A stretch of 47,691 nt of DNA, from positions 1-47,691 of IMG/VR virus record IMGVR_UViG_3300042196_000086; one strand, given 5' to 3'. Numbering within the stretch: the stretch's first letter is position 1; each line of letters begins with the position of its first letter. Below, in pieces: positions 3,612 to 47,691 of this stretch. The position numbers were made by a program, and so were the translations under genes. Origin of the DNA: a virus. Its lineage: Duplodnaviria > Caudoviricetes. The notes under the pieces are model-generated. The model ran no database searches and was not told where the DNA came from. It worked only from the letters and a program-made list of their open reading frames with translations.

Positions 3612-4244
3612 ATGAGAGAGATCAAGCTCAAGCCTGACGGCACGTGGCGACTCACGCCGCAAGAAGTCGAATGGCTGAACGGTGCGGCCGAGCGTGAGGC
3701 TGCGCTCCGGACGAAGGTCGAGGAGCAGCAGGAAGAACTACGAATGACTCATCATGCTTTGGCGTTAGCTCGCGGACAGATCGAGGAGCTGACGCGGGAG
3801 GTTGAGAAGTGGAAGCAGTCGGCCGACGACTACGCAGCCGATTGTCGTCGTCTTGTGGCCCAACGCGAGCAGGCCGAGGCCCGACTAGCGATATGGCAAG
3901 CAGCCGAGTCGTTGCCGGATTGTCGTGCCTGTGCCGCGCTGGATGCCGCTCGAGAGCAGCCGACGCAGGAGCCGCCACGCACCACGACGTGCCCGAACTG
4001 TGGGCGCGAGGCGTCAATCAACGGATGCGACTTCTGCGAATTGGATGAGGGGCCGACGCAGGAGCCGCTCCCGCTCGGGCACGAGTACTTGAAGTGTCGA
4101 TGTCACGTCCTCCCACAAGATGATTGCTGCGGCGATGGATGTCATCGTCGATCTCCGAGCGGATTGGTAGCCGCTTGGATTCCTTGCGGCCAGCCCGAGA
4201 GCGCCCACCAGCCGACGCAGGAGAAGCCGGAGGTGATCCGATGA
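3612..4244 (+). CDS. Hypothetical modular protein (coiled coil plus Cys-rich modules)
   Basis: GGAGGAG SD, heptad region, three PTQE-bounded Cys-rich segments. Confidence 0.75.
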   Translation: MREIKLKPDGTWRLTPQEVEWLNGAAEREAALRTKVEEQQEELRMTHHALALARGQIEELTREVEKWKQSADDYAADCRRLVAQREQAEARLAIWQAAESLPDCRACAALDAAREQPTQEPPRTTTCPNCGREASINGCDFCELDEGPTQEPLPLGHEYLKCRCHVLPQDDCCGDGCHRRSPSGLVAAWIPCGQPESAHQPTQEKPEVIR

Positions 4245-5981: not shown

Positions 5982-7856
5982 ATGAAGAGCAACCGCTGGC
6001 GGTTTGCCTGGGCCTGGAACATCGGGGCCACGCTAGTTACGCTCGCGCTGCTGCCGGGCTGCTTCCACCGCCCGCCGCCCCCGCCGCCCCCGCCGCCAGA
6101 CGCCGACCGCGATGGCGTGCCGGACTCTGTGGACCGCTGTCCGAACGAGCCGGGCCCGGCTGAAAACGAGGGCTGTCCGCTGCCGCCTCTGGCTCCGCTG
6201 CTGCTGCGCCAGGAGAGCCCGCCCTTTCTCGTCCGCGATGGCAAGCCGCACAAGCCGCAGGGGGCGATCCAGTGCTGCATGACGCCGGAGTCGGTTCCGG
6301 AGGTGGCACCAGCGGTTGGGACGAAGCGCCAGGTCAAGCGCCCGCGCCCGATGCCGTTCCGTCCAGGCCGCACCGAGGCGTTCTGTAACTCGCTCTGGCC
6401 GATGGCCGCTGAGTGCTTTCAGGACTACATGACGGCGGCTGGCTTCAACTTCTTCCACTTCCGGATGGGGCCGTTCTACGCGAGCGCCGACTTGGGCGAG
6501 GACGACTTCGCGGAGATCGGTGGACCCTACGCTTCAGGTCCTGACACCGGGTGGAGTCCTGAATGGAATCCCAAGTTCTGGGAGACCTTCGTGCGCTTAC
6601 TGGAACATGCACGCAAGAACGGCAGCAACGTGGAAGTCAACGTGATCGATACATGGGTCTGCAAGCACGCAAATTCTGACTGGGGCGACCTCCAGATGCC
6701 TTGGCCGACCGAGGATGTTGAGGCCTGCGGCCGGCGGCCGAGTCCTGAGCAGGAGCGGTGGATCCGCAAGGTCGTGAGTGAGGCGGCCAATGCGGACTGC
6801 ACCAATTGCATCTATATCGTCGATAACGAGGGCGGCGAGATCCGGGGGACGAAGCGCGAGTGGTACGAGTGGGTCAAGTCGATCGTCTTGGACGAGGCTG
6901 CTCAGCGCGGACTACCGGTCCCGATGGTCGGGATCAACAACACGGACTACTGCGACGGCTCATTCGACTACTGTGCCACGCACGATACCGCCGCGCTGCT
7001 CGAGCCCATCGGCGGCACCGGGAAGCACTCCGAGAACAACGAGCACAACAAGCGCCCCGGATTCTCTCCCGAACAGGAGCACGCGAACCACTGCTCCGCC
7101 CAGAAGAAGGGGCTGCACTGGTGGTTCTGGCGCGCCGAGATGTCGAACGAGGACTTCGAGGCGACGCGGGCGCTCTTCGCTCAGGGTTGCGGCGGTCCGG
7201 TCGAGTGCTTCCCTCCCGATGCCGAAGACCCACTGTGGAATCCCATCCCGGTCGCGGGCGGTAGTCGCGAGCTGCGCTGGGCAATCGACTCGGCCAAGCT
7301 CGAGGTCGGGGAACGCTGCGGCACCGATCACCAGGGGAGCCTCGCTACACTCGACCTGCTCGGAACCGAACTCCGGCGGCGCGGTTACTGTGCGGCGCGC
7401 GGTGCAGACGCGCTGAGCATTCGTACTCCTGATGGGCTCTGGCAGGAGTGGCACAGCGTGAGCTTCGCTACCGGCTGCTGGGCGAACAACTCCGAGGTGC
7501 TGCCGAAGGCGACCTATACCTACAGCGGGCTGCCGCGCCCGCAGACGTGTCCGATCGACGTGCCGGTCGTGGCCGAGGTGCTCTGCAAGCTCCACCAGGC
7601 AACGAACGCGATCTACGACTGCACCCCGAAAGCGCACGGCCAGCCGATTCTGCCCGAGGGCGACCCGATGCGCCAGGTGTGCGAGCTCAAGGCGATGGGC
7701 GGGGCGTCGCCTACGTTCTCGGTCGATGGCGGGCTGTCCGTGTCGCCCGTGCCGAACCCGATGCAGTTCAAGCTGTCTGGCTCAGGCTCGGGCACCGTTC
7801 GCTGCACGGTGCCGGCGGTATCCGGCTCGCTCTGCAATCTACAGGTGACCCGATGA
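5982..7856 (+). CDS. Lipoprotein with polyPro linker, thrombospondin type-3-like repeat, putative clan GH-A (GH5-like) glycoside hydrolase barrel and Cys-rich C-terminal domains
   Basis: Lipobox LLPG-C, P9 tract, DADRDGVPDSVDRCP. Barrel signatures FNFFHFRM, WNPKFWETF..LLEHA, IVDNE (acid/base), DYCATH, ENNE (nucleophile candidate) and WWFW. Alternative start at 5952. Confidence 0.65.
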   Translation: MKSNRWRFAWAWNIGATLVTLALLPGCFHRPPPPPPPPPDADRDGVPDSVDRCPNEPGPAENEGCPLPPLAPLLLRQESPPFLVRDGKPHKPQGAIQCCMTPESVPEVAPAVGTKRQVKRPRPMPFRPGRTEAFCNSLWPMAAECFQDYMTAAGFNFFHFRMGPFYASADLGEDDFAEIGGPYASGPDTGWSPEWNPKFWETFVRLLEHARKNGSNVEVNVIDTWVCKHANSDWGDLQMPWPTEDVEACGRRPSPEQERWIRKVVSEAANADCTNCIYIVDNEGGEIRGTKREWYEWVKSIVLDEAAQRGLPVPMVGINNTDYCDGSFDYCATHDTAALLEPIGGTGKHSENNEHNKRPGFSPEQEHANHCSAQKKGLHWWFWRAEMSNEDFEATRALFAQGCGGPVECFPPDAEDPLWNPIPVAGGSRELRWAIDSAKLEVGERCGTDHQGSLATLDLLGTELRRRGYCAARGADALSIRTPDGLWQEWHSVSFATGCWANNSEVLPKATYTYSGLPRPQTCPIDVPVVAEVLCKLHQATNAIYDCTPKAHGQPILPEGDPMRQVCELKAMGGASPTFSVDGGLSVSPVPNPMQFKLSGSGSGTVRCTVPAVSGSLCNLQVTR

Positions 7857-9502
7857 AGACTCTCTCCCTCCTCCTCGCTTTCGCTGTCGTGGCCTCTGCC
7901 GAACCGATCAAGAAGGCCACGCATCCGATCCCCGATTCCTACATCGTGGTGTTCGATCCCCAGCTCGTCCGGGCGCACGACGAAGCCTCCGAGCTCCCCA
8001 CCGTTGCCGAAGTCGCCGAGAGCATGGTGCACGGTAAGGGCCAGCTCAAGCACGTTTACGAGAAGGCGCTGCGGGGTTTCGCGGTCATTGCCATCAAGTC
8101 GGATGACGCTGAGCTGCTCGCCCAGGATCACCGCGTGCTCTATGTCGAAGAAGACGGCGAGGTTTCGATCGAGGCGAGTCAGGCGAACCCTGGCTGGAAC
8201 TTGGACCGGGTTGACCAGCGTGATCTGCCTCTCGACGCGAGCTACACCTACAACCAGACGGGCGCCGGCCTCCACGCCTACGTGCTCGATACCGGGATCC
8301 GCTCGACCCACGTCGAATTCTCGGGGCGGATCGGGAACGGCTTCACCTCGATCCTTGACGGCTTCGGCACCGAGGACTGCCACGGGCATGGGACGCACAC
8401 CTCGGGAACGGTCGGTAGCACGACCTACGGCGTGGCGAAGGAAGTCACGCTGCATCCTGTCCGCGTGCTCGGCTGTACCGGCAGCGGCACGGCATCTGGA
8501 GTAATCGCTGGTATCGATTGGGTGACAGCGAACCGGATTGACCCGGCCGTGGCGAACATGTCGCTCGGCGGCGGCTTCAACAGCGCCCTCAATGCCGCGG
8601 TGACGAACTCGATCGCCACAGGCGTGGTCTATGCGGTCTCGGCTGGAAACAGCGCGGGTGATTCATGCCTCTTGAGCCCCGCGAGCACGCCAGAGGCTCT
8701 CACGGTCGGCTCGTCCACGATCACAGACGCGCGTTCGTCCTTCTCCAGCATCGGCGTCTGTCTCGATCTCTTTGCACCCGGCTCCTCGGTTCTTTCCACC
8801 TACAACACCAGCGACACGGCTACAGCCGTGCTCAGTGGAACCAGCATGGCATCCCCGGCCGTGGCGGGCGCGGCTGTCCTCTACCGCGCGGCGGTCCCAA
8901 CAGCATCTCCTGCGGAGGTCGGAGCCGCCATCACTGACTTCGCGACCCAGGGCAAGATCACCGACCCGGGGATCGACTCGCCCAACCTGCTCCTCTACTC
9001 GCTCTTCGATGTCGCCCCGCCTCCGCCTCCTCCACCTCCTCCACCTCCTCCACCTCCCCCGCCGCCAGTCAACTACGTCGCGAACGGTGGCTTCGAGGAG
9101 AGTGGGGTGCCATGGATCTTCTCGGGTAGCGCAACGTGGCTCACCGGAGCAGCCCACTCCGGCACGGGCTCGGCTCGACTCGCTGCCAGCAGTGGATCGC
9201 TATCTCAGGAGGTGACGCTGCCTGTTGAGGCATTGGGCTCGTTCTCCTTCTGGCTGCGGATCACGAGCGAGGAGCACGGGAGGTGCCCGCGATGTGCGGA
9301 CGACTTCCTGTATCTGGATGTCATCGCGGAGTCCGGCACCTTCACGCTCGCCACCTTCGACAACCGTCGCGAGGGCGAGTACCTCCAGAGGTTCGCCAAT
9401 CTCTCTGGCTTCAAGGGCCAGACGATCGCTATCCGATTCAGCACTCAGCAGGACAGTGATCGGCCCACCGTCTTTGACATAGACGACGTGCTGCTGCGGT
9501 GA
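7853..9502 (+). CDS. Secreted subtilisin-family S8A protease (aqualysin/proteinase K-like) with I9 propeptide, P17 linker and C-terminal jelly-roll/CBM-like domain
   Basis: Signal peptide MKTLSLLLAFAVVASA, propeptide IPDSYIVVF...YVEED. Triad LDTG, HGHGTHTSG, GTSMASP and oxyanion SAGN. C-domain begins VANGGFE. Confidence 0.95.
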   Translation: MKTLSLLLAFAVVASAEPIKKATHPIPDSYIVVFDPQLVRAHDEASELPTVAEVAESMVHGKGQLKHVYEKALRGFAVIAIKSDDAELLAQDHRVLYVEEDGEVSIEASQANPGWNLDRVDQRDLPLDASYTYNQTGAGLHAYVLDTGIRSTHVEFSGRIGNGFTSILDGFGTEDCHGHGTHTSGTVGSTTYGVAKEVTLHPVRVLGCTGSGTASGVIAGIDWVTANRIDPAVANMSLGGGFNSALNAAVTNSIATGVVYAVSAGNSAGDSCLLSPASTPEALTVGSSTITDARSSFSSIGVCLDLFAPGSSVLSTYNTSDTATAVLSGTSMASPAVAGAAVLYRAAVPTASPAEVGAAITDFATQGKITDPGIDSPNLLLYSLFDVAPPPPPPPPPPPPPPPPPVNYVANGGFEESGVPWIFSGSATWLTGAAHSGTGSARLAASSGSLSQEVTLPVEALGSFSFWLRITSEEHGRCPRCADDFLYLDVIAESGTFTLATFDNRREGEYLQRFANLSGFKGQTIAIRFSTQQDSDRPTVFDIDDVLLR

Positions 9503-9605: not shown

Positions 9606-9733
9606 GGCTCCGCACGCGGCTGAAGCTGTATTGGCTCGGCCTGGACAACCTCGACCGCGTGTCGGTGGTCTGCGCCGTGATCGTGATCGTCTTCGCGCTG
9701 TTCCTGTTCGCGTTCCTGTTCGAGATCGTGTGA
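9602..9733 (+). CDS. 43-aa single-pass membrane peptide (absent from the ORF track)
   Basis: Translated by hand: MRLRTRLKLYWLGLDNLDRVSVVCAVIVIVFALFLFAFLFEIV. Fills the gap before the GGAGGG SD of the next gene. Confidence 0.6.
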   Translation: MRLRTRLKLYWLGLDNLDRVSVVCAVIVIVFALFLFAFLFEIV

Positions 9734-9747
9734 TCGGAGGGTCTTCC

Positions 9748-10932
9748 ATGAAGTACGCCGCGCTGCTGGTCGCCGGTGCGTTGTTCGCAAGCTGCCCTGG
9801 TGTGCCACCTCCGGACCCGAATCCAGGCTACGACTGCTCGGCGCAGCCTGCGCTGTCAGGCCTCGTCCCGGTGGCGAACGCCATCGCGGGCCGCTACATC
9901 GTGGTGCTCAAGGATCGGCCGCCGGCGCCGCTGCGGTCCTTGATCCACGCGGCCTCGGTCGGCGTGACCGACGTCAAGACCACGTCCACGGGCTACGCGG
10001 CGACGATCGCGGCTCAGGCGTTGAAGAAGCTTCTCGCCGATCCGGCGGTGCAGTACGTGCAGGAGGACGGAGTCAAGCGCGTCGACCCGCGGCCGGCCGA
10101 GGTCACGAATGCCTGGGGCCTCGACCGCGTGGACCAGCGCGATCTTCCGCTCGACGGCCAGTATGCCCCGGGCGCCGATGGCCTGGGCGTCAACGCCTTC
10201 ATCGTGGACACCGGGGTCTCGGACCATCCCGACTTCGAGGGCCGGCTGCAACCGGGCTGCCTCTTCAGCGCGCACGGCGGCACCTGCGAGGACGGCCACG
10301 GCCACGGGACGCACGTCGCGGGGACGATCGGCGGGCGCCTGTGGGGCGTCGCGAAGAAGGTGACGCTGTGGGCGGTCCGCGTGCTCGACGCGAACGGCTC
10401 GGGCTCCGACTCCGACGTGATCCGGGGGATTGAGGCGGTCACGGCTTGGAAGCTGGCGCACCCCGAGGCGAACGCGGTCCTGAACATGAGCCTGGGCGGA
10501 GGCGACTCACCTGCGCTCAACCGAGCCACCTGTAGCTGCATCGAGGCCGGAGTGACGGTCGTGGTCGCGGCCGGCAATGAGCAACAGGATGCGGACCGCT
10601 CCTCACCCGCGCGCGTGAGGCAAGCCATTACGACGGGGGCCACCGACTCAAGCGACCGTGCGGCGACGTTCTCGAACTACGGCCCGCTGATCGACATCCA
10701 GATGCCCGGCGTCTCGATCGAATCGACGCAGCCCGGCGGGGGCACTGCCATCTTCTCCGGGACTTCGATGGCCTCGCCACACGCAGCGGGGCTCGCTGCT
10801 CTCATCTTGGGGCGGCACCCAGGGATGCCGCCGGTTGAGGTGCGGGACTGGATGGTGGCGAACGCCACGCCGAACAAGGTCGTGGATGCCAGGCCGGGGA
10901 CAACTCAGTCCATTGGATACGTCAAGGAGTAG
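9748..10932 (+). CDS. Second S8A subtilisin-family protease, lipoprotein
   Basis: GGAGGG SD, lipobox LFAS-C, propeptide IAGRYIVVLK. Catalytic motifs VDTG, HGHGTHVAG, AAGN and GTSMASPH. Confidence 0.95.
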   Translation: MKYAALLVAGALFASCPGVPPPDPNPGYDCSAQPALSGLVPVANAIAGRYIVVLKDRPPAPLRSLIHAASVGVTDVKTTSTGYAATIAAQALKKLLADPAVQYVQEDGVKRVDPRPAEVTNAWGLDRVDQRDLPLDGQYAPGADGLGVNAFIVDTGVSDHPDFEGRLQPGCLFSAHGGTCEDGHGHGTHVAGTIGGRLWGVAKKVTLWAVRVLDANGSGSDSDVIRGIEAVTAWKLAHPEANAVLNMSLGGGDSPALNRATCSCIEAGVTVVVAAGNEQQDADRSSPARVRQAITTGATDSSDRAATFSNYGPLIDIQMPGVSIESTQPGGGTAIFSGTSMASPHAAGLAALILGRHPGMPPVEVRDWMVANATPNKVVDARPGTTQSIGYVKE

Positions 10933-22640: not shown

Positions 22641-22982
22641 ATGGCGAAGAAGCGACAGGCTGACGAAGACTGGCCCCCGATTCCAGGACCGCTGCCTCCG
22701 GCTCCTCCGCGCAATGAGGCCGCTCAGCAACTCGCCGATGAGGCCGCGATGCTCGGCAACCTGACGCCGCTCGACCGCGCGATGCTCGCCTTCGAGCTCG
22801 AGCCCGAGCACGTGCTCGGCTCGAACGTGAAGGAGGGCCCCGATAGCACGGTCGAGGTCGTGATCGTGACCCAGGGCGGGCAGCGCCTGCGCTGGCCGGC
22901 GGATGCGGGGCGCGTCCTCGCGCAGCACGAGAAGGACGGCACCGTCCCGGGGGCAGCCCCGGCCGGGATCTTCAAGCGGTAG
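22641..22982 (+). CDS. Hypothetical protein
   Basis: AGGAGG SD. Starts MAKKRQADEDW. Confidence 0.75.
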   Translation: MAKKRQADEDWPPIPGPLPPAPPRNEAAQQLADEAAMLGNLTPLDRAMLAFELEPEHVLGSNVKEGPDSTVEVVIVTQGGQRLRWPADAGRVLAQHEKDGTVPGAAPAGIFKR

Positions 22983-23006
22983 AAAGCGAGGGGAGCGGAC
23001 GTGGCG

Positions 23007-23216
23007 ATGGATCGACTGCTCGAGCGGCTCGAGGATCCCCGTCCGCTCCGCGTGCACGAGGTCGCGGAGCTCACGGGCTACTCGCTCCCGACCGTCCGGA
23101 AGCTGATCGAGGCGGGGGTGCTTCGCACCGTCGTTCCGGAAAGCCTGATCGAGCGCCGCGTGCCGATCACAGAGGCCCGCCGCCTCTGTCGCGACCTCGG
23201 CATGCTGGAGGACTAG
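23007..23216 (+). CDS. Small HTH_17/MerR-like DNA-binding protein
   Basis: LRVHEVAELTGYSLPTVRKLIEAGVL...RRVP. Alternative GTG start at 23001. Confidence 0.8.
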   Translation: MDRLLERLEDPRPLRVHEVAELTGYSLPTVRKLIEAGVLRTVVPESLIERRVPITEARRLCRDLGMLED

Positions 23217-34245: not shown

Positions 34246-37095
34246 GTGCCGGTGCCGGCCTCCGACGCCATCGCCTCGGACGTGGGGCACGGAGCCCTCG
34301 GGCTTCGCGACAACCTGCGGCCGCTTCAGGAGCTACTCGCCGAGACTTCCGGCCAGCGGCACGTCTGGGTCGAGATGCGGCTCGCACAGCTCATTACTGG
34401 ATGGGCCTTCGACAGCTCCGGCACGTACGTCGCGAGCATGCTCACAGCCTCATGGGATGGTGCGACGCGTGAGGTGATCGGCGTCAAGACCGCGAACGAG
34501 ACGCTCACACGCGTCGAGACGCTCGCGGCCTGCCAGGCCACGGCGGGCACGTTCTACTACAAGGCTGGCGGATCGCAGATTGCGGCATGGGACGACGGGA
34601 TCTCGACCTGGGATAGCGGGATTCTGTGGGACCAGGGGCCGCTGCTCTATGTGCACCTGACGAACGGCGCCAATGCGGCACAGACCGACGTGGTCGCGCA
34701 GTTCGGCCTCTTCGTCGGGACGCATGGCGTCTGGCAGCCGACGCTCGGCGTCGACAAGCTCACGGACGGCAACCTCGAGGCCTGGACCTCGGCGACCGAT
34801 CTCACCTCGTGGACGGAGGCGGCCGTCGGCGCCGGCGGGGGTGCGGTGAACCGCGACAGCACGACCATCCGCCAGGGCGTCTACTCCTGCAGGATCGACG
34901 GATCACTGAACGCCGCGGGCGGGCACGCCATCTCGCAGGGTTCGATGGCGGGCCTCGGCGGCGCCTACTACCGGGCGAGCGGCTACTACCGGACGGACGC
35001 GGGGAATCCCGCCGGCGTCGCGGCGGCGCTTCGCGTCGGGATCTCCGGGGCCTACCTGCTGCCCGATGGCGTGAGCACGACCGCGGCCACGACGGGCGTG
35101 GCGCTCGCGAACACGGCGGGGGAGTGGCGGCGCTTCGCCTTCGATTTCCGCTGCCCCTCCGACACGTCCGCGCTCGAGCTCGCCGCACTCGTCTACAACT
35201 CGACCGGTGGCGCGCTGTCGGCGACCGTGCACTTCGACGCGCTGCGGCTCCAGCGGATTTATCTCTTCGAGTTCGCCGAGCCTCTGCTCACGCTCGACGG
35301 CGTGCCGACGCTCGACGCATCGCGGCAGGACGCTTTCTTCGGTCCCGTCGGTGTCGCGCTCGGCCAGCTCGCGATCGCGAATGGTGGCGCCCGCTTCGAG
35401 TCGCTGCTCGCCTCGTTCGACTGGACCAACCAAGAGGCGATCGTCCGGCTGGGTGGGCGCTTTCCGAACGGCGGGAATGAAGTCCTCTTCGACGACTGCA
35501 GCGTGCAGGCGATAGGGCTCATGGCCGACCCTGCCGTGTCCGACTCGCGCGTGAGCGTGCAGCTCGAGGATGCCCGGCAACGCCTACGCCCATCGCTCCC
35601 GACGCGCTACTACACCGAGGCCGAGTTCTCCGATCTCGCGGATCGCGACAAGGGGCGTGTGCGGCCGATCGTGCTCGGCCAACTTCTTGGCCTACGGCCT
35701 GCGCGAATCGGATTGACGAGCGACGGATTCGGGACCTTCGAGCTTGCCGACTGCACGGGCTCGCCTCAAGGAATCCCCGGGGCCGGAACTGGCGCAGCGG
35801 CGGACATCAAAGTACGCTTCTACCTGACCGAAGAGCACGCGGCGAATCCCATCGCCGGGCGTCGACTCACGATCTTCGTCGACGACTCACCGCCTTTCGC
35901 GACCTGGGACATCACCACCGGCCGCTTCACGCTGACGAAGGACCTGGGGCCGCGCGGCATCACGTCGAAGAACGACAAGCTCGACTTCAACATCGGCGGC
36001 GCGGCCCTCGTGGCCGGAACGAACCACGCGGAGGAGCCCACCATCTACGGAATCGAGTTCATCGCGACGCAGTGGGCTGCCGCCATGAACGCAGCCGCCG
36101 GGACAGCCGACATCACGATTACCTACAACCAGACTACGCACTTGATGACGATCGCGAAGGGAGCAGGCACGCTCAACCTGCTCGCTGCAACTGGTGCCAA
36201 CAAGCATCGTTCGATCTTCCCGATGCTCGGCTTCACGCAAGGCGACCGCACAGGCGCGCTGTCCTACGTCGGCGACTCGCCGGCATTCGTCGATGCGGAC
36301 GACCTGATCGTGAGGGCAGAAATCAAGGGGTTGCTCGACGACGCCTCGGGCACCTATACGGGCACGGCGAACGCCCTGATCGAGAAGGCCCCCGACGTCG
36401 CCGTCTACCTGCTCAACCGCTATCTGGGCGTGCCGCTTGCCTCGATGGATCTCCCGAGCTTCACGGCTGCGCGTGCCACGCACCCGGCGGCGCTCGCGGT
36501 CTACCTCGGTGCGCTCGACGCTGGTGGCGGAGGTTCGAGCGTCTCGGCCTTTGAGGTCCTCGAGAAGATCGAGAACGGCGCCGGCGCCGACATCTCGCTC
36601 GAGGGAGAACTCTGGCGCTGGCGGACGCGGGATTCGTCGGTACCGTCCGATGTCGTTGACCTCTTCGAGTATGACCTACTCTCATGGGAACCGGCTGGCT
36701 ATAGGGCCGAGGATTACTATGCTGTGGTCCGCGTGGCGTACGGGCAGGATCCGACGAGCGGCGCCGAGGTCGTGACGCAAGAGACCAGATCGGAGACAGA
36801 CGTGCGATTCGGTCGACCGAACCAGCGCACGTTCCCGACCTTCCTTTCGAGCTCGAACGACGCCGCGGCGCGGCTCGCGATCCTGTCGGCAGAGGCGGCC
36901 ACGAAGCGCGCACGCTACCGCTTCCGCGTGAAGGGTAAGCTGTTGCTCACGCCGGTCGGACGCAAAGTGCGCGTGACGCGGGCGAAGGGGCTCCATACGA
37001 GCGGAGCCCTTTCAGGGCTGCTGGTGCGGATCCTCCGCAAGCGAGATGACGTCGGCGCCTGGGCGAGCGACGTCGAAGCAATCGAGGTGGTCTGA
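34246..37095 (+). CDS. Tail tip/hub protein with CBM-like and other inserted domains
   Basis: 949 aa. LTDGNLEAW...GEWRRF...VHFDALRL is CBM4/9-like. Hub motif RPIVLG. Confidence 0.75.
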   Translation: MPVPASDAIASDVGHGALGLRDNLRPLQELLAETSGQRHVWVEMRLAQLITGWAFDSSGTYVASMLTASWDGATREVIGVKTANETLTRVETLAACQATAGTFYYKAGGSQIAAWDDGISTWDSGILWDQGPLLYVHLTNGANAAQTDVVAQFGLFVGTHGVWQPTLGVDKLTDGNLEAWTSATDLTSWTEAAVGAGGGAVNRDSTTIRQGVYSCRIDGSLNAAGGHAISQGSMAGLGGAYYRASGYYRTDAGNPAGVAAALRVGISGAYLLPDGVSTTAATTGVALANTAGEWRRFAFDFRCPSDTSALELAALVYNSTGGALSATVHFDALRLQRIYLFEFAEPLLTLDGVPTLDASRQDAFFGPVGVALGQLAIANGGARFESLLASFDWTNQEAIVRLGGRFPNGGNEVLFDDCSVQAIGLMADPAVSDSRVSVQLEDARQRLRPSLPTRYYTEAEFSDLADRDKGRVRPIVLGQLLGLRPARIGLTSDGFGTFELADCTGSPQGIPGAGTGAAADIKVRFYLTEEHAANPIAGRRLTIFVDDSPPFATWDITTGRFTLTKDLGPRGITSKNDKLDFNIGGAALVAGTNHAEEPTIYGIEFIATQWAAAMNAAAGTADITITYNQTTHLMTIAKGAGTLNLLAATGANKHRSIFPMLGFTQGDRTGALSYVGDSPAFVDADDLIVRAEIKGLLDDASGTYTGTANALIEKAPDVAVYLLNRYLGVPLASMDLPSFTAARATHPAALAVYLGALDAGGGGSSVSAFEVLEKIENGAGADISLEGELWRWRTRDSSVPSDVVDLFEYDLLSWEPAGYRAEDYYAVVRVAYGQDPTSGAEVVTQETRSETDVRFGRPNQRTFPTFLSSSNDAAARLAILSAEAATKRARYRFRVKGKLLLTPVGRKVRVTRAKGLHTSGALSGLLVRILRKRDDVGAWASDVEAIEVV

Positions 37096-37649
37096 TGTCG
37101 TTCGATGGAACCAAACCGGCAAACAACAGCGCGCTCGTCTCGGCCGAGGTGCGGGCGAACCTTCAGGACCTCGACACCCGCGCGAAGCCTCTCGCGACCT
37201 TCCAGAGCACCGTGGGCAACGTCGGCACGGGTGAGGACACGCTCGCCTCGTTCAGCATCCCGGCGGGGACGCTCCCGTCCAACGGGGCTTCTGTCAAGGG
37301 GATCTTCTGGGGCAAGTCGGCGTCCAACGCCAACGCCAAGACGCTCCGGGTGCGCTTGATCGAGGGCGCGAACAATCTCATCCTCATCGGCGCGACGCTC
37401 ACGGTTAGTGAGGCCGGGCACTGGATGCTGGGCTTCGTGGCCATGCGGACCGGTGCAACCACATTCCGTGCTGCGACTCAGATGATCGCCGGCCCGGGCA
37501 ACGGTCAGATAACCAAGTCTGTAGCCTTTGTGACGCCTTCCTCGACCGTCACCTGGGCGAACGCCGTGGAGGCGAGGCTCACAGGGGAGGCGACCGCCGA
37601 CAACGACGTCACGATGGAAGGTGGCTACATAGAACTGGCTGGAGTGTAG
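37095..37649 (+). CDS. Short tail fibre/spike protein
   Basis: N-terminal SAEVRANLQDLD anchor motif followed by a beta-rich head. Confidence 0.65.
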   Translation: MSFDGTKPANNSALVSAEVRANLQDLDTRAKPLATFQSTVGNVGTGEDTLASFSIPAGTLPSNGASVKGIFWGKSASNANAKTLRVRLIEGANNLILIGATLTVSEAGHWMLGFVAMRTGATTFRAATQMIAGPGNGQITKSVAFVTPSSTVTWANAVEARLTGEATADNDVTMEGGYIELAGV

Positions 37650-37653
37650 TCAT

Positions 37654-38442
37654 ATGCCTCAGGAGTTTTTCTACCCGATCAGCAGCGCGACCCACGACAC
37701 GCCATCTGGCCGCGACGACTTCACCTACGCCGGGGGCGCTAATAAGAATGCTTCGGCTCGGCCCGGCGGTGGTCGTGCCGGACCAATGACTCACGATGGC
37801 GACACATCACGCATTCAAGTTACGACCAACACGGCATCCGCTGAACAAGCTCTAAACGTAGACTGGCCCGGCCCGATCGGGACATACGTTAACGCTGCGA
37901 ACACAATCTCCTTGTACTTTAGACACAGGTTTGCCGCCGGATCTCCGAGTGGCATTAGGCGAGCGTATTTCTGCAACGCAGCGGGTACCCTATCTGCGTC
38001 GTCTCAGGGTGTAGACAATCAAACGTCTAGCTACGTGGACACAGGGACAGCTGACGCATCGGCCTCAGGCTATCGCCCCGGTGGTGGTACTTGGGTAACC
38101 ACAGACTTCGCGGACGATAAGACAATTTTTCTGATGGCGTTCGCCCAGTCCAACCCCACAGGGCCGAGCCCAGACAACGATGTTGTCGCCTACGTTACAT
38201 CCATGTGGGGACAACTAACCTACGAGTCCCCTACGGGCGGCCTGGTATTCCTCCTGCAACTCGCTGGCCTCGGCGCGCTGCCCTTCGTGGGCGCGATGGA
38301 CTTCAGCCACTTCATGCGCTACTTGGCCTGGCGGCGGGCCCACCATCCACGGCACACGATCTTGACCGGCGACGAGGTCCGCCAGGCGTGGCGGGAGCTG
38401 CGGGAGTACCGGGCGCCGCGCTTCTTCCTGCCGGCGCTCTAG
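37654..38442 (+). CDS. Putative receptor-binding tail protein with low-GC body and GC-rich C-terminal tail
   Basis: GGAG SD, last gene of the tail operon, S/T/G/N-rich. Confidence 0.65.
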   Translation: MPQEFFYPISSATHDTPSGRDDFTYAGGANKNASARPGGGRAGPMTHDGDTSRIQVTTNTASAEQALNVDWPGPIGTYVNAANTISLYFRHRFAAGSPSGIRRAYFCNAAGTLSASSQGVDNQTSSYVDTGTADASASGYRPGGGTWVTTDFADDKTIFLMAFAQSNPTGPSPDNDVVAYVTSMWGQLTYESPTGGLVFLLQLAGLGALPFVGAMDFSHFMRYLAWRRAHHPRHTILTGDEVRQAWRELREYRAPRFFLPAL

Positions 38443-38783
38443 CGCGCGCCGCCGTGGCGTGCGACCTGCCTGGCGTTCCACGCCGCGCAGCCGCCCCAGA
38501 CGACGATCGCGGCGACCTTGAGGACCCTGCCGGCCCGCCGGTGGCCGCGGCGCCGGAGTTCTCGATCGAGGAGCAGCACGCCCGCCGTCGTGCCCGCCTT
38601 CACGACCACCGCGGAGGCGGGTCCGCGCACCAGCGGGTTCGCGTCGTGCGCGCCCGGCACCGTCGCGAACGCCCACTGCGTCGTCGCCAGATCGGCGGCG
38701 CCGACGCCGAGGACGCCGAGCGTGAGGCCATCGGCGGCTCCGGCCGGCATGGCGCCGGGGAAGAGGAGCGCCCCGAGGAACAC
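38439..38783 (-). CDS. Membrane protein, DUF5658-like (start uncertain; frame open to 38993)
   Basis: ADLATT...GAHDANPLV...VKAG...AWN pattern and 3 hydrophobic segments. Confidence 0.6.
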   Translation of the reverse strand: MFLGALLFPGAMPAGAADGLTLGVLGVGAADLATTQWAFATVPGAHDANPLVRGPASAVVVKAGTTAGVLLLDRELRRRGHRRAGRVLKVAAIVVWGGCAAWNARQVARHGGAR

Positions 38784-38799
38784 GAGCCCGCCCGCGGCG

Positions 38800-39040
38800 T
38801 GTTCAAAGTGAAGCGCAAGCGGTGATCCTGCTGCTGCCGTAAGTCGTTGAGGGCTGGTGGCCTGGGACGGAATCGAACCGCCGACACGCGGATTTTCAGC
38901 AGGTAGGAATGGCCTGCTCCCGAGCACAGGAAACGGCCAGAGGCGTCTCGCCCACGACTGGAGCGGCTTCCCGCGTCTACTGATCGTCTCCATGTGTCCC
39001 CTCCCGTCCGTACCTTGTTCAAAGTGGCGCGTAAGCGGCG
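38800..39040. mobile_element. attP region: tRNA-derived core flanked by arm-type direct repeats
   Basis: 25-bp repeats at 38800-38824 and 39016-39040 (21/25 identical), IHF-like TCAA-N4-TTA on the - strand at 38840-38850, core at 38855-38899. Confidence 0.8.
38855..38899 (-). other. 3' half of tRNA-Phe(GAA), the att core (not a complete tRNA)
   Basis: Reverse complement CTGAAAATCCGCGTGTCGGCGGTTCGATTCCGTCCCAGGCCACCA has the anticodon loop, T-arm GTTCGATTC and CCA. No D-arm or 5' acceptor strand. Confidence 0.92.
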
Positions 39041-39110
39041 CTCGATCAGCTCGTACGCCTGCTGTCTCGTGAGGGTAGTACGGAAGTCAAGCCTCGGACT
39101 CTCTGGCTCG

Positions 39111-39602
39111 TCACCGCGGCAGCCGGGCCCGTTTCGCACCTGCCTCCTGCAGGTCCCCGTCCGAGACGATCGCGTAGCGCCGGAGCATGGCCTCGCTGCG
39201 CCAGCCGATCGCGCGCATCACGGTCGGGACGCTCACACCCGCGCGCAGCATGTCGCGCGCCGCGGTGCGCCTGAAGTCGTGGCGGATGCGCCCGCTCACT
39301 CCCGCGGCCGCGCATGCGGCGAGCCAGGCCTCGCGCAGGTAGCCGCTCGCCAGAGCCGTCTCATCGGGCCCGAGGAAGAACCGGGACAGCCTCTTCGCAT
39401 CGTCCGCTCCGGGCACGTGGAGGGCACTGACGACCCGGAGTAAGTTCCGAACGCTCATGGAGGATGCCCCTCGTTCCCAGTTGTGAATCGCGTTCTTCTG
39501 GACTGCCGGCTTCAGGGCCGCCCCAAGCTTCTCCTGGCTTAACTCCCTGAATTCACGCCAGTTGGCGAGCAACTGGCCTTCGATGGGTGGGCACGCCGGC
39601 AT
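39111..39602 (-). CDS. XRE-family repressor HTH fused to the C-terminal catalytic fragment of a tyrosine integrase (163 aa)
   Basis: aa 11-63 XRE HTH (LANWREFRELSQEKLG...IHNWERG). aa 88-155 AW..AC..AG...HDFRRT..R...AG......IGW....L.RY. Confidence 0.85.
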   Translation of the reverse strand: MPACPPIEGQLLANWREFRELSQEKLGAALKPAVQKNAIHNWERGASSMSVRNLLRVVSALHVPGADDAKRLSRFFLGPDETALASGYLREAWLAACAAAGVSGRIRHDFRRTAARDMLRAGVSVPTVMRAIGWRSEAMLRRYAIVSDGDLQEAGAKRARLPR

Positions 39603-39653
39603 TCTCCCGCCCACCCTGATTCCCTGCAATCTCTGGAATCGTGTGCTATAGCC

Positions 39654-39682
39654 TTGACAACTGCGCTGTTGGTGCATAGATT
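39654..39682 (+). promoter_or_regulatory. Sigma70-type early rightward promoter (PR-like)
   Basis: TTGACA (39654-39659), 17-bp spacer, TAGATT (39677-39682). Confidence 0.8.
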
Positions 39683-39689
39683 CGTGTGC

Positions 39690-39929
39690 ATGAGTCGCCT
39701 ACGTCAAGTCAGAGAGGAGAGGGGGCTGAGGCGGGAGGATCTCGCCTCCCGCGCTGGCATCTCCTATCAGTATGTCCGGATTCTGGAATCGTCTGATCCG
39801 CCGACCCCCGGCCTCGAGATCGCCCGGCGGATTGCCGAGGCGCTCGGCGCGACGGTAGACGACATCTTCCCGACCGCCGATGTCGTGGTGGCCCCCGTGC
39901 CCGATACGGGCGCCCCGGACGCGGCCTGA
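39690..39929 (+). CDS. Cro-like XRE HTH regulator
   Basis: LRQVREERGL...LASRAGISYQYVRILE...PGLEIARRIAEALG. Divergent from the repressor. Confidence 0.88.
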   Translation: MSRLRQVREERGLRREDLASRAGISYQYVRILESSDPPTPGLEIARRIAEALGATVDDIFPTADVVVAPVPDTGAPDAA

Positions 39930-39934
39930 AGGTC

Positions 39935-40498
39935 ATGAGCGTCCAAGGTAGGTTCTCGACCTTTCCGGAAACAGACCCGAACCCGAACGCGGTGGGCCTG
40001 TTCCGCGACCGTATCGCCCTCCGCAGCCGGCGCGCGGATGTCGAGTTCCCGCGCGCGCTCGACCTCGAGGCCCAGGTACTCGAGGCGCTCCACGGCGAGC
40101 TCCACGGCGTCGCGTCGGCGCTCGCCGGCTGCCACAGCGCCGACCACTTCCGGGAGCGGCTCCGGGGCGAGCGGGCGTTTCCGCTCGGCGACCTGTGCCG
40201 GCTCGCGACCGACCCGACGCGCGAGGCACGAGCGGCGACGGTCGCGGCCCTGGCGCTCCTGGCGCGCGCGGTGGGGCAGTCGCTTCAGCCGGTGACCGCG
40301 GGCCCCGGCTCGCTGGTCGAGTCGGCGATCGGCGCGGCGGAGATTGCGACGACGGCCCTGGGGGACGTGACCCGGGCGGTCGCGGATGGAGTCGTAGACC
40401 CCTCGGAGGCCGCGTCCCTCCGCTCGCGCGCGACGGAACTGCGGCGCGCGGCCGCGGCCTTCGAGGGTGCGGCGATCACGAGCGAGGCCCGCCGGTGA
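39935..40498 (+). CDS. CII-like regulatory protein
   Basis: Follows cro. C-terminal ADGVVDPSEA..L motif as in phage 186/CP76 CII-like proteins. Confidence 0.6.
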   Translation: MSVQGRFSTFPETDPNPNAVGLFRDRIALRSRRADVEFPRALDLEAQVLEALHGELHGVASALAGCHSADHFRERLRGERAFPLGDLCRLATDPTREARAATVAALALLARAVGQSLQPVTAGPGSLVESAIGAAEIATTALGDVTRAVADGVVDPSEAASLRSRATELRRAAAAFEGAAITSEARR

Positions 40499-40806
40499 GC
40501 GCGACCCCGATCACGGCGGCGAACGCGCGCGAGCAGGCGCTCGAGGGCGCGGCCGAGGCGCTCCGGCGCGTGGCAGACGCGCTGCACCTCCTGGCCGTGA
40601 CGGGAGACGCTCCCGGCCCGCGGCTCGTGGTCTCAGGGCGCGAGCCCGAGGTGCTGCTGAGCATCGAGCAGGCGCAGGCGCTTCTCGGCGGATGCTCGCG
40701 GCGGCACGTCGAGCGGCTCGTCGCCGGGAAGCCGTGCCGGCGCAAGGCGGGACGCAAGGTGCTAGTCGAACGCGCGGGGCTGCTCGCGCTCACACGGAGG
40801 GGTTGA
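40495..40806 (+). CDS. Excisionase-like HTH_17 protein
   Basis: LLSIEQAQALLGGCSRRHVERLV...GRKVLV. GTGA overlap. Confidence 0.7.
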   Translation: MSATPITAANAREQALEGAAEALRRVADALHLLAVTGDAPGPRLVVSGREPEVLLSIEQAQALLGGCSRRHVERLVAGKPCRRKAGRKVLVERAGLLALTRRG

Positions 40807-40811
40807 TCGCC

Positions 40812-41105
40812 ATGGGAAACATTCGGCTCGCCGGTCGACGTGGCGAGGCGCTCAACCGCTTCTGGGCGGGCAAGACCGACGCCGCGCATGCGCTCGCCGA
40901 GATGCGCGGGCACGTGGCGGCGCCGGTGCCGTCCGATGTCCTGCTCGGACTCGTCGCCGATCTCGTCTCCGCGGCGAAGGATCTCGGCCACCAGTCCCGC
41001 GCTGCGCTTGATCGCGAGGAGGTCCTCGCCAAGCTCAACGGCATCTCGGAGCGCGTGGCCGTTGCGCGCGCGATGTACCTGGCCGCGATAGACGGCCGCT
41101 CTTGA
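40812..41105 (+). CDS. Hypothetical protein
   Basis: GGAGGG SD. Starts MGNIRLAG. Confidence 0.7.
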   Translation: MGNIRLAGRRGEALNRFWAGKTDAAHALAEMRGHVAAPVPSDVLLGLVADLVSAAKDLGHQSRAALDREEVLAKLNGISERVAVARAMYLAAIDGRS

Positions 41106-41119
41106 AGGGGGATAGGACG

Positions 41120-42100
41120 ATGGCGACTCAGACGCAGGGGAAGACGGCGGACCCGGCCACGACGGGGGAGCGGCCGCTTGCGCCGCTGCCGGACGAGATC
41201 GAGAAGGAAGAGCAGCACGCGCTCGCGCTGCGCGACGAGAACCTCACGAAGCTCGCGCTGATCGATCCGGAGCTGATCGAGGTCCGGCTCCAGGCGCGCG
41301 AGAAGGCGCTCGCGAAACTGCGCGAGGTCGCGATCCGCGGCTCCCACGCCTTCGACTGGACGCTCTACAAGGACAAGGAAGGGCGCGTCGTCGGCGTCCC
41401 GCGCGATTCCGCCGCAGTGCAGATCCGCAAGTGGATGGGGATCTCGATCTTCAACTACCGACCGCTCGAGGGCGGCATCCCTATGCCGCTCGTCTCGAAG
41501 GAGCGGATCAAGACCACCGACCGCGACGGCAAGATCACCGGCGAGCAGGAGGTGACCATCGTCGAGATGTGGGCGGACGGCCTCTGCGCGCTCACCGGCG
41601 AGCCGATCGAGGGCGTCTACTACGCGGTCCGCTCGGACAAGCCCTTCACGGGCAGCGGCACGCTGCAGGACCTCAAGGCCTCCTGCCGCACGGGGCTCGA
41701 CGCCAAGGTGACGCGGATCCTCTCGGGGCTGCGTAAGGTCCCGATCGACCAGCTCAAGGAGCTCGGCGTCAAGGTCGAGCAGTCGCACACGGGGATGGGC
41801 TTCGGGACCTCGGCTGACCGCGGCGCCGCGCGTGTCCAGGAGGCCGGCGTCAAGGAGGGTCTCGACGAGCTCAAGGCCGAGGTGCTCCGGCGCGTCGGTG
41901 GCGACGTCTCAGCCGCTCGCCAGCTCACGGTCGACATCACGAAGAGCCCGGATGGGAAGTTCAAGGGCTTCGACTCGCTCGACCGGCTGACGAAGGAGTG
42001 GCAGGTCACCGCGGCATGGAAGGCGCTCAAGTCGCACTCCGTCTTCGGTGGCGACGGGGCGACGAAGGGCGACGAGCACGAGCCGGGCGTCGACGGCTAA
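41120..42100 (+). CDS. Putative single-strand annealing/recombination protein
   Basis: Strong codon bias, directly upstream of an exonuclease, acidic C-tail. No family motif recognised. Confidence 0.5.
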   Translation: MATQTQGKTADPATTGERPLAPLPDEIEKEEQHALALRDENLTKLALIDPELIEVRLQAREKALAKLREVAIRGSHAFDWTLYKDKEGRVVGVPRDSAAVQIRKWMGISIFNYRPLEGGIPMPLVSKERIKTTDRDGKITGEQEVTIVEMWADGLCALTGEPIEGVYYAVRSDKPFTGSGTLQDLKASCRTGLDAKVTRILSGLRKVPIDQLKELGVKVEQSHTGMGFGTSADRGAARVQEAGVKEGLDELKAEVLRRVGGDVSAARQLTVDITKSPDGKFKGFDSLDRLTKEWQVTAAWKALKSHSVFGGDGATKGDEHEPGVDG

Positions 42101-42109
42101 GGCCATCCG

Positions 42110-43135
42110 ATGGCGACCGCGAACGTTCTCCAGTTCCCGCCCGAGCCTCCGTCTGAGGATCTCCTCACCGAGATAGTCCGCCGGCGGACGGAACGGCTCG
42201 CCGGCCAGTCGAAGGCGTACGCCCGCACCATCCCGATCGCCTCTGACGTCGCCCCCGATTCCTGCGCGCGACGCCAGGTGCTCGAGATCGTGAAGTGGGA
42301 GGACAAGCCGCTCTTCGAGGCCGACCGTCAGGCGCGCTTCGAAGCCGGCAACCGCGCGGAGGAGGACATCATCATCGACCTCAAGCGCGACGGCTTCCGC
42401 GTCGTGCAGGAACAGGTCCCCTTCGAGCTGAAGCACCGGCGCACGGGCGAGCCGTGCCTGCGCGGGAAGATCGACGGGAAGCTGCAGTGGAACGGTCAGA
42501 CGGTGCCGTTCGAGATCAAGAGCGCGCACCCGAACATCTTCTCGTCGATCGGCTCGGTCGAGGACTGGAACCGATGGTGGTGGACCAGGAAATACCCGAG
42601 CCAGCTCCACAGCTACCTCTTGGGGCACGGCCACGAGTGGGGCTTCTGGATCCTCACCGATTGCCTCGGCAACTGGAAGCCGCTGCGCGCCGACCTCGAC
42701 TACGCGCTCGCCGAGCGCATCTGGACGTTCGCGGAGTCGATCATGGACGGCGTTCGCGCCTACCGGGCCGACGGCTCGCTGCCCGCCTACACGAGCGACG
42801 CCACGCAGTGCGGGCACTGCGACTTCTTCGGCAGGACGTGCAACCCGGACACGATCGAGCAGGGCGCGCGGATGCTCGGCGACCCCGAGCTCGAGGCGCA
42901 GCTCGCGCGCTGGTGCGAGCTCCGCGAGCCCTACCGCGAGTACAACGGGCTCGACAAGCGCGTGAAGGACGCGCTCAAGAAGGCGCTCCCCGGGAAGCCC
43001 GAGGCGCGCGCGATCGTCGGGCGCTACGCCGTGACGATCACCGACAAGCCGGTGAAGGCCGAGGAGAAGCCGCGCGCGGCGCGCGTCGACCGCGTCGTGA
43101 CGATCGAGGAGCTGCTGAAGGGAGACCCACGATGA
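42110..43135 (+). CDS. PD-(D/E)XK Cas4/RecB-like exonuclease
   Basis: N-terminal C.RR, GKIDG, EIKS, QLHSY and C-terminal CGHC......C Fe-S ligands. Confidence 0.88.
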   Translation: MATANVLQFPPEPPSEDLLTEIVRRRTERLAGQSKAYARTIPIASDVAPDSCARRQVLEIVKWEDKPLFEADRQARFEAGNRAEEDIIIDLKRDGFRVVQEQVPFELKHRRTGEPCLRGKIDGKLQWNGQTVPFEIKSAHPNIFSSIGSVEDWNRWWWTRKYPSQLHSYLLGHGHEWGFWILTDCLGNWKPLRADLDYALAERIWTFAESIMDGVRAYRADGSLPAYTSDATQCGHCDFFGRTCNPDTIEQGARMLGDPELEAQLARWCELREPYREYNGLDKRVKDALKKALPGKPEARAIVGRYAVTITDKPVKAEEKPRAARVDRVVTIEELLKGDPR

Positions 43136-43320
43136 CCGCCGAGCTACTAAACCAACTTCTCGAAGCCCTGCGGCCCTTCGCGGACCAGATGATCTCGGAT
43201 GACTCGATGTGTCACCGTGGGCTCTGCTCCGCTGAGGAGTGCTGTCGCTGTTCGAAGATCCTCAAGGCTCGCGCTGCGATCGCCGCGGGCGAGGCTTACG
43301 TGCCCGAGGCCGGCCGATGA
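43132..43320 (+). CDS. Small Cys-rich hypothetical protein
   Basis: GGGAG SD, ATGA overlaps at both ends. Confidence 0.65.
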   Translation: MTAELLNQLLEALRPFADQMISDDSMCHRGLCSAEECCRCSKILKARAAIAAGEAYVPEAGR

Positions 43321-44006
43321 CCGGCTCACGCGGCCACGCGATCGTGGTCGGTCGGGCGTTGCTGCAGCCGTGGGTCGATCCGGCGGCACGCGAGGCGATC
43401 TACAAGCTTGCGGGCGACGCGAAGGACCTGACGTCCGAGCTCCAGGCTGCAGTGGTCGCCGACGCCGGCAGCGCCGCGCACGTCACCGAGCTGCTGACGC
43501 TCGCGGCCTCGGCCCAGAAGCGCGTCGAGGAGGCCCGGCGCAGCATCACGGACCCGCTCAAGCGCCAGGCGAAGGACATCGAAGACGCCGTGCGGCCCCT
43601 CGTTTCCGCGCTCGACATGCTCATCCTGACGGGGAAGACGAAGGTGCTCGCCTGGCAACGCGCCGAAACCGAGCGCGTGCGCGCGCAGCGCGAGGCGCAG
43701 GAAAGGGCCGAGGCCGAGGCACGGCAGAAAGCGATCGAGCAGGCCGTCGCCGAGCAGCGCCCGGTCGCGATGCCCGAGCCACTGCCGCCGGTGCAGGAGG
43801 CGCCGCGCGGCGTGCGCACGGACTACGGGACGGCGTCGGTGCGCAAGACCTGGGAGTTCGAGATCGTGGACGCCTCGAAGCTCCCGCCCGCCTTCCTCAT
43901 GCCGAACGAGCAGGCGATCCGGGCCGCGGTGCGCGCCGGCTCGCGCGAGATCCCGGGCGTTCGGATCTTCCAGAGCGACGGCCTCGCGGTGAGGGCGGCC
44001 CGATGA
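43317..44006 (+). CDS. Coiled-coil protein with Gp157/Gam-like C-terminus
   Basis: RKTWEFEIVD...LP..FLMPNE.AI...V..G.REIPGVRI. Confidence 0.7.
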   Translation: MTGSRGHAIVVGRALLQPWVDPAAREAIYKLAGDAKDLTSELQAAVVADAGSAAHVTELLTLAASAQKRVEEARRSITDPLKRQAKDIEDAVRPLVSALDMLILTGKTKVLAWQRAETERVRAQREAQERAEAEARQKAIEQAVAEQRPVAMPEPLPPVQEAPRGVRTDYGTASVRKTWEFEIVDASKLPPAFLMPNEQAIRAAVRAGSREIPGVRIFQSDGLAVRAAR

Positions 44007-47410: not shown

Positions 47411-47691
47411 GCCTTGTGCTCTCGCTCTTCCCCGGAATCGGCCTCCTCGATATGGCGTTCGAGGCCGAAGGCTTCTGCGTCGTGCGCGGGCCCGACCTGC
47501 TATGGGGCGGCGACATCCGGCAATTCCATCCGCCGGCGGGGCGCTTTGATGGCGTGATCGGGGGGCCGCCCTGCCAGAGCTTCTCAAGCTTGGCTCACCT
47601 GGTGCGTGCGCGAGGGAACGAGCCCCGGTTCGGCAACCTCATCCCCGAGTTTGAGAGGTGCGTCGCGGAGGCGCGGCCGGAATGGTTCCTC
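47407..47691 (+). CDS. C5 cytosine DNA methyltransferase, 5' part
   Basis: MSLVLSLFPGIGLLDMAFE...GDIR...GGPPCQSFS. Continues at the window start. Confidence 0.92.
   Translation, partial: MSLVLSLFPGIGLLDMAFEAEGFCVVRGPDLLWGGDIRQFHPPAGRFDGVIGGPPCQSFSSLAHLVRARGNEPRFGNLIPEFERCVAEARPEWFL
47524..47691. repeat. Terminal direct repeat, right copy
   Basis: Matches 1-168 at an offset of 47523. Confidence 0.95.

Follow-up and report, generated by a model that had tools for sequence, protein, structure and literature searches.

The window analysed here, a 47,691-nt stretch assigned to the Caudoviricetes in IMG/VR, is a circular 47.5-kb sediment phage genome that contains no N; genes for terminase, portal, head, neck and replication functions are present. 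An exact copy of the contig's final 126 nt stands at 43–168, and the terminal overlap as a whole (1–168 versus 47529–47691) is identical at 159 of 163 nt, the first 42 nt differing from the contig's own end. A methylase gene spans the circular join. The IMG/VR record is classed as linear and 57% complete, despite the terminal overlap that reveals the circle. Elsewhere in the genome, tandem genes located ahead of the packaging genes (7448–9499 and 9631–10929) both match phrog_3677 (annotated as protease, E ~1e-58), and the head module contains, before the protease-capsid gene, a long but imperfect inverted repeat and an HTH gene encoding 71 aa (22770–22856 and 23001–23213).

The initial annotation of this DNA had described a 163-aa ORF in the cI position, in which a repressor-type helix-turn-helix (XRE HTH, residues ~11–63) is fused to the catalytic tail of a tyrosine integrase. 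The frame is indeed open over 163 codons from ATG 39602 to the stop codon. Pfam placed HTH_31 at residues 9–67, HTH_3 at residues 16–64 and Phage_integrase (PF00589) at residues 80–146, PHROGs agreed, and the catalytic residues H108, R111, W134 and Y143 were located as described. The junction, originally given as 39342–39362, was narrowed to 7 nt within that range (Table 1). The two homologies adjoin at L84-A85 and switch within ~7 nt, with no insert between them. The repressor half, which carries the XRE HTH, adjoins a divergent cro.

Table 1. Features of the cI–int–attP region, in window coordinates.
Feature	Position	Strand	Basis and remarks
Candidate integrase arm-type site, left of core	38800..38810	-	Exact 11-mer repeat; 0.12 chance matches expected
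attP core, 3′ half of tRNA-Phe(GAA)	38852..38899	-	48/48 nt identical to tRNA-Phe of G064
Candidate integrase arm-type site, right of core	39016..39026	-	Exact 11-mer repeat; also in L001 and L004
163-codon open frame of the initial annotation	39111..39602	-	ATG 39602; probably untranslated, from start-codon analysis
Tyrosine integrase, last 80 codons and stop	39111..39353	-	H-x-x-R, W and Y kept; match to P0010 residues 293–372; PF00589
Junction	39348..39354	-	Last residue matching the repressors, L84; first matching the integrases, L84/S86
Short XRE-type cI gene, 5′ part	39351..39594	-	GTG 39594–39592, extra base within the next four codons, HTH, RFFLGP and five residues; last ~30 family codons missing
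Candidate PRM-like promoter, TTGCAG-17-GAGAAT	39601..39629	-	By eye, 7/12 consensus; 6 nt ahead of GTG
PR-like promoter, TTGACA-17-TAGATT	39654..39682	+	Scanner, 1 found and 0.0 expected; 7 nt ahead of cro ATG
cro-like XRE gene, whole	39690..39929	+	HTH_3/HTH_31; 57% identical to L082 cro
CII-like gene	39935..40498	+	phrog_101, E 3e-7
Excisionase-like HTH_17 gene (weak)	40495..40806	+	21.8 bits, below cut-off of 27; L001 homologue 28.8 bits

The integrase half corresponds to the end of P0010, a whole integrase of 372 aa: ORF residues 84–163 are identical to P0010 residues 293–372 at 76 of 80 positions, and the PF00589 match covers profile positions 101–168 of 172. The H-x-x-R motif, the Trp at the H/W position and the Tyr are present, and the first catalytic Arg and the Lys are not. 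Residues 1–292 of P0010 have no counterpart in the ORF, and with them are lost TGWR (204–207) and GEGK (232–235), which we take to be the motifs of the first catalytic Arg and the Lys. The core-binding and arm-binding domains, also reported missing, occur neither in the ORF nor in any of the genome's six reading frames. Searches of these six frames gave one tyrosine-integrase match, this ORF, in agreement with the claim that the phage has no other integrase, and no match to a serine recombinase (resolvase or large serine recombinase) or ParA. The longer relatives of the tail (n = 28, 292–429 aa) all contain PF00589, and the whole integrases among them are separate genes of 360–380 aa. ORF residues 80–83 and A85 misfit the integrase family, the position of A85 being Pro in 13 of 13 whole integrases; from S86 onward, each tail residue is present in at least one of these 13, that is, no decay is visible. 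Such an undecayed tail fits a recent deletion and fits retention equally. Over 67 codons, the single fused copy differs from the integrase of locus L004 (described below) at 19 synonymous and 6 non-synonymous codons, which mostly record time as whole integrases; the dN/dS computed for the tail was therefore set aside as uninformative on selection after the fusion. In sequencing run X1, a 195-nt contig tracks the tail with 8 differences up to 39354 and goes on into P0010 residues 283–292 (by eye). Since this contig continues as a whole P0010-type integrase, a sibling phage with the whole gene exists.

A search of 1.84 billion representatives returned, among the best 150 of 5579 hits, 11 proteins that match the N-terminal, repressor half only. 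Eight of the 11 are 106–137 aa long and end 30–37 residues past an FFxGP motif; the other three are longer. The window keeps the invariant HTH residues of this family and follows it to D-E-T-A-L (residues 80–84), where the homology stops, so that the place of the family's C-terminal helix of 30–37 residues after FFxGP is taken by five residues and then by integrase. Short XRE repressors with FFxGP and a C-terminal helix were seen in P0041, P0043, P0045, P0047, P0071, P0094, P0127, P0131 and L082:1498–1836; P0070 and L083 bear a long C-terminal domain that resembles a LexA-type peptidase (by eye). The family was present in 2 of 59, 2 of 78 and 2 of 401 genomes, the same two genomes each time. 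The HTH half alone was found neither by word search nor in GenBank phages; in viral contigs a degenerate pattern, run with a positive control, gave no match, and none of 47 alignment candidates was confirmed.

Comparison with this family does not uphold ATG 39602 as the start of the gene. In 9 of the 11 family proteins and in the intact locus L082, M or V stands four residues before a conserved Glu, and M/V-P-T-I-E is seen in several members; in two of the 11 (P0070 and P0131) and in L083, Val occurs at another in-frame offset. At the family's start position the 163-aa frame shows Cys. The family start in the window is GTG 39594, and the remainder of the ORF is in a different frame: this GTG lies 13 nt from the conserved Glu codon, compared with 12 nt in L082, and its frame gives a peptide of 13 aa. 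This GTG frame reads R-E-N-A-G-V-P-T, like the upstream-extended calls P0045 and P0047 (R-E-N-x-x-V-P-T). ATG 39602 is the end of a GAGAAT-G motif common to L082, where it is out of frame with cI. One inserted base near the cI start explains both the 13-nt spacing and the in-frame upstream ATG. This predicted frameshift is a second lesion, overlooked in the initial annotation, and because it shifts the family start codon by one base relative to the HTH frame, the phage probably makes no hybrid protein. An exact 151-nt piece in run X2 (39538–39688) covers the start region and the extra base, whose letters thus occur in a public run.

The candidate PRM-like promoter, for which the promoter scanner made no leftward-strand call, bears on the same question. 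Its second hexamer, GAGAAT, is overlapped by ATG 39602 and also occurs in L082, 5 nt before the GTG of that locus. Should GAGAAT act as a −10 box, the cI mRNA would be leaderless and would not include ATG 39602; alternatively, GGGAG may serve as a ribosome-binding site, 9 nt from GTG and 1 nt from ATG. A weak GGGTG lies 9 nt ahead of ATG 39602, with which some translation of the 163-aa frame is possible. On the other strand, the cro of L082 is preceded by the same TTGACA-17-TAGATT hexamers, 6 nt ahead of its ATG. In all, TTGACA-17-TAGATT or TACATT stands directly before cro in four elements (window 39654–39690, L082:1896–1931, L004:455–483 and, by eye, L083 ~1800–1830), and their cro mRNAs are probably leaderless, with little or no room predicted for a ribosome-binding site. 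A cro-based scan returned five distant loci. A 14-bp near-palindrome between the PR −35 and −10 hexamers (39658–39671) is an operator candidate that did not rise above chance in the scan used: it is single-copy, and 42 of 100 shuffled sequences also gave one match when two mismatches were allowed. Beyond cro, the gene described earlier as excisionase-like and intact is weakly supported as such, its HTH_17 score falling below the cut-off (Table 1).

The same earlier description of attP as intact was borne out: the 48-nt tRNA-Phe core is flanked by an 11-mer repeated exactly twice. A near-identical core occurs in L001 and L004, and a scan of viral contigs with the core returned one record, the L001 phage. 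Among 301 genomes, eight contained the core with at most one mismatch, one of them (G064) exactly. As G064 was sampled from the phylum of an Acidobacteriota genome, the tRNA-Phe match makes a host in the Acidobacteriota likely. An open frame of 174–184 codons runs across the att core in three phages (window 38439–38993 on the minus strand, L004:1329–1853 and L001:7301–7852); in the window it ends as a small hydrophobic protein, with no Pfam or PHROG match, and it may be a product of chance in G+C-rich DNA. In L081, two tRNA-Phe 3′ halves lie 2.3 kb apart (G283:C7:1707–1743 and 3979–4015), one of them within a tRNA gene; the pair may mark a small element integrated at this att site, or what is left of one.

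Comparison with relatives, proposed in the initial annotation, showed whole counterparts of both halves as separate genes, arranged on one strand as cI, spacer, int and attP. In the intact locus L082 (genome G327), the order is cII-like, cro, cI (112 aa), a gene of 88 aa and, as a gene apart on the cI strand, the integrase. The syntenic phage of L001 shares the att core; there cro is followed by an unlike cI, and 187 nt separate this cI from an integrase of 363 aa that belongs to the window's family. L068 and L069, found via a Cas4-like gene, carry a separate 125-aa cI, with a different integrase further on in L069. A direct parent, with the window's cI whole beside the window's int, was not found among these relatives, and hence the deletion size and the shared bases given below are estimates.

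Homologues with the same two-part architecture, whose absence the initial annotation had held to speak against a real chimera, numbered zero. The fusion is a singleton (the P0001 cluster has one member, on one contig). The best 150 of the 5579 hits comprised the query itself, the 11 proteins matching the HTH half and 138 matching the tail only, none of the latter with an HTH Pfam domain; a two-part relative should exceed the floor of these hits, 64.5 bits, because the scores of both halves would add. In six-frame scans of the window and 96 loci, which include three from the same phage contig, 115 frames matched the integrase profile and 16 the cI profile, and only the window's frame matched both. 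None of 21 truncated or flagged frames had an HTH Pfam domain. A locus search with the whole ORF in viral contigs gave 19 candidates, none of which was confirmed. A metagenome scan, in which absence counts weakly, as 31 of 64 parts were covered, gave at least one locus (L004). No cI–integrase-tail fusion was found described in the literature searched, which takes in few subscription papers. Integrase tails of this broad family joined to unrelated N-termini (transposase, small terminase, transporter) were seen in P0058, P0137, P0139, P0005 and P0034, and are probably scars or mis-assemblies of the same sort.

The additional locus L004, on an unverified metagenomic contig, forms the end of a related phage that shares the att core. 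At L004:452–1400, cro and the HTH of a different cI lead straight into an integrase that begins at P0010 residue ~149. This integrase is 87.8% identical to P0010 over 213 residues; its frame is not that of the HTH, and close to its end it is frameshifted once more. As the breakpoints differ, the events in L004 and in the window are independent, and as the L004 join is out of frame, the in-frame state in the window looks like chance. Deletions free of selection would be expected to yield such a mix of one in-frame and one out-of-frame join, and the pair suggests that cI-into-int deletions recur in this phage group. A CGGCTC hexamer located just before the joins in both was judged, on a rough estimate, to be chance in DNA of 68% G+C and was dismissed.

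Coverage of the junction was inspected in contigs of public runs. No contig bridged the junction in any of the four runs; X3 and X4 were small shares of runs and were not used. The nearest exact piece, in X2, covers 39156–39337 and thus stops short of the junction, and the 151-nt X2 piece resumes beyond it. X1 contigs hold 0.93 of the sampled words of 37000–44000 and none covers 39385–39744 (87/100 of the run read, records filtered), a hole that proves nothing either way. Over 36000–44000, X1 contigs are of two kinds, exact and ~90% alike, both kinds present from the att region on; over 36000–38884, the only contig among those listed is an exact one. A 1475-nt X1 contig joins the window at 39934.

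These observations are best explained, at a probability of roughly 0.77, by a deletion scar in a lytic derivative that has lost lysogeny, with the hybrid probably silent through its frameshifted start. This is close to the first option of the initial annotation, an in-frame deletion leaving a non-integrating phage, which gains from the whole, separate parents, from the layout of L001 and L082 and from the abrupt switch of homology. The starting point would have been a temperate phage with leaderless cI and cro. A deletion of ~1.2–1.5 kb would have joined cI codon ~81 to int codon 293, taking away 876 nt of int, ~95 nt of cI and a spacer of 187–490 nt as in L001 and L082, presumably by illegitimate recombination at few shared bases, with an in-frame outcome by a one-in-three chance. 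The one-base insertion near the cI start may have preceded or followed the deletion; had the deletion been the earlier event, one could speculate that the hybrid, having kept the whole HTH, was silenced later. With neither CI nor integrase working, growth would be obligately lytic, and lytic growth would be the default because PR, cro and the lytic genes are whole. The attP, cII and weak xis-like gene would then be left-overs awaiting erosion, and the intact integrase tail would place the loss of lysogeny in recent times. The genome has features that such a derivative would be expected to have: a circular sequence with broken cI and int, no other recombinase or ParA, and relatives with whole modules (L001, L082 and P0010). 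The phage is therefore likely to be obligately lytic, a lifestyle read here from sequence, and loss of lysogeny by deletion is a common event of a known kind.

The junction could instead be an assembly chimera or a rare molecule, the phage in the sample having whole cI and int and the contig skipping ~1.2–1.5 kb. This we consider unlikely. The lack of a bridging contig in the four runs would agree with it, as would the 42 nt at which the contig's start differs from its end and the close sibling with a whole integrase in X1, strain mixtures being known to stress assemblers; however, the contig is free of N and circularises, its two homologies adjoin so closely that there is no long shared word for an assembly graph to cross, and no word of at least 14 nt from the junction region (39330–39375) recurs in the genome. 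Exact X2 pieces, possibly not independent of the source sample, lie on either side of the junction, and L004 shows a like loss at another breakpoint. An accidental hybrid repressor is similarly improbable. Here the 163 aa would be expressed from ATG 39602, the HTH would bind operators, and integrase helices would replace the lost C-terminal helix of 30 residues. The frame is open from ATG to stop, the HTH keeps the invariant residues, the weak GGGTG may allow initiation, and the junction coincides with the beginning of the family's C-terminal helix, which the first integrase helix resembles in pattern (by eye). Nevertheless, the same ATG is out of frame in intact L082 and hence is not the family start, it sits 1 nt behind GGGAG or within the predicted −10 hexamer, and there is no second example; nor would such a repressor yield a stable lysogen, because integrase and ParA are absent. 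In a variant that seems to us about as doubtful, the repressor would be newborn, the insertion having shifted initiation to the upstream ATG, and the tail would act as an oligomerisation module, possibly contacting the sibling's integrase at the shared att site.

Least probable by far is the second option of the initial annotation, a chimeric regulator selected to act on the integrase of another element, either as a donor of the catalytic Tyr in trans or as a dominant negative. H-x-x-R, W and Y are intact, attP is whole, X1 also contains a sibling whose integrase, of the same family, is whole, and swapping of C-terminal helices between subunits is real in the tyrosine integrase family (PMC3646895), so that in principle an interaction of the tail is conceivable. 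Against this stand the unconserved architecture of a singleton, the out-of-frame family start codon and the out-of-frame join of L004. The tail moreover has lost the core-binding domain, by which it would be positioned at an att site, and the tails with unrelated N-termini such as transposase and terminase look like scars. In the same paper, which dates from 2013, only Flp and SSV1 Int are named as cleaving in trans, while lambda Int, Cre, XerD and HP1 Int cleave in cis.

As a deletion scar, the locus adds a natural example of a temperate phage losing lysogeny, one that probably infects Acidobacteriota, and in itself matters little. It is of some practical concern, in that the tail passes the Pfam integrase cut-off, so that lifestyle predictors would likely call the genome temperate, and in that gene callers pick a start that masks the frameshift. 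If the hybrid is made and active after all, it would offer a rare view of a regulator in the act of acquiring a module from a recombinase.

Known phages offer parallels. Lactobacillus phage LL-H, which is propagated lytically, has only a truncated integrase gene. For Streptococcus thermophilus phage TP-778L, aberrant excision between two int copies is given as the origin of its truncated integrase, the only one it has (PMC3952083); the window resembles this lytic phage in having a truncated integrase gene only, and differs from it in that attP and both flanking repeats are whole and the break runs into cI. The divergent XRE pair, the cII-like gene after cro and the promoter hexamers 6–7 nt before the starts recall the lambda-type cI/cro arrangement, and the lambda cI mRNA is described as leaderless (PMC10491246); by contrast, the window's repressor family is short (106–137 aa in 8 of 11) and has no long C-terminal domain, and the transcript starts are predicted ones. 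The tail shares H-x-x-R, W, Y and the last helices with the tyrosine integrases of PF00589 but lacks 292 of 372 residues, and nothing ties its family to the trans cleavers Flp and SSV1 Int (PMC3646895). Further parallels are found in mycobacteriophages. D29 is described as a lytic phage that derives by deletion from a temperate parent (PMC5712189), and a report on the A3 phages Cat, Goose1X and Goose1D lists repressor deletions both whole and partial, repressor indels of a single base and one integrase deletion, and cautions that assembly may have produced some of the indels (PMC13664763). The window shares with D29 and the A3 phages naturally deleted lysogeny genes, truncated repressors, left-over parts and independent deletions in close relatives, and is set apart from them by a single deletion that removes parts of both cI and int and leaves one frame, by the additional frameshift at the start, and by a lifestyle deduced from the genome alone.
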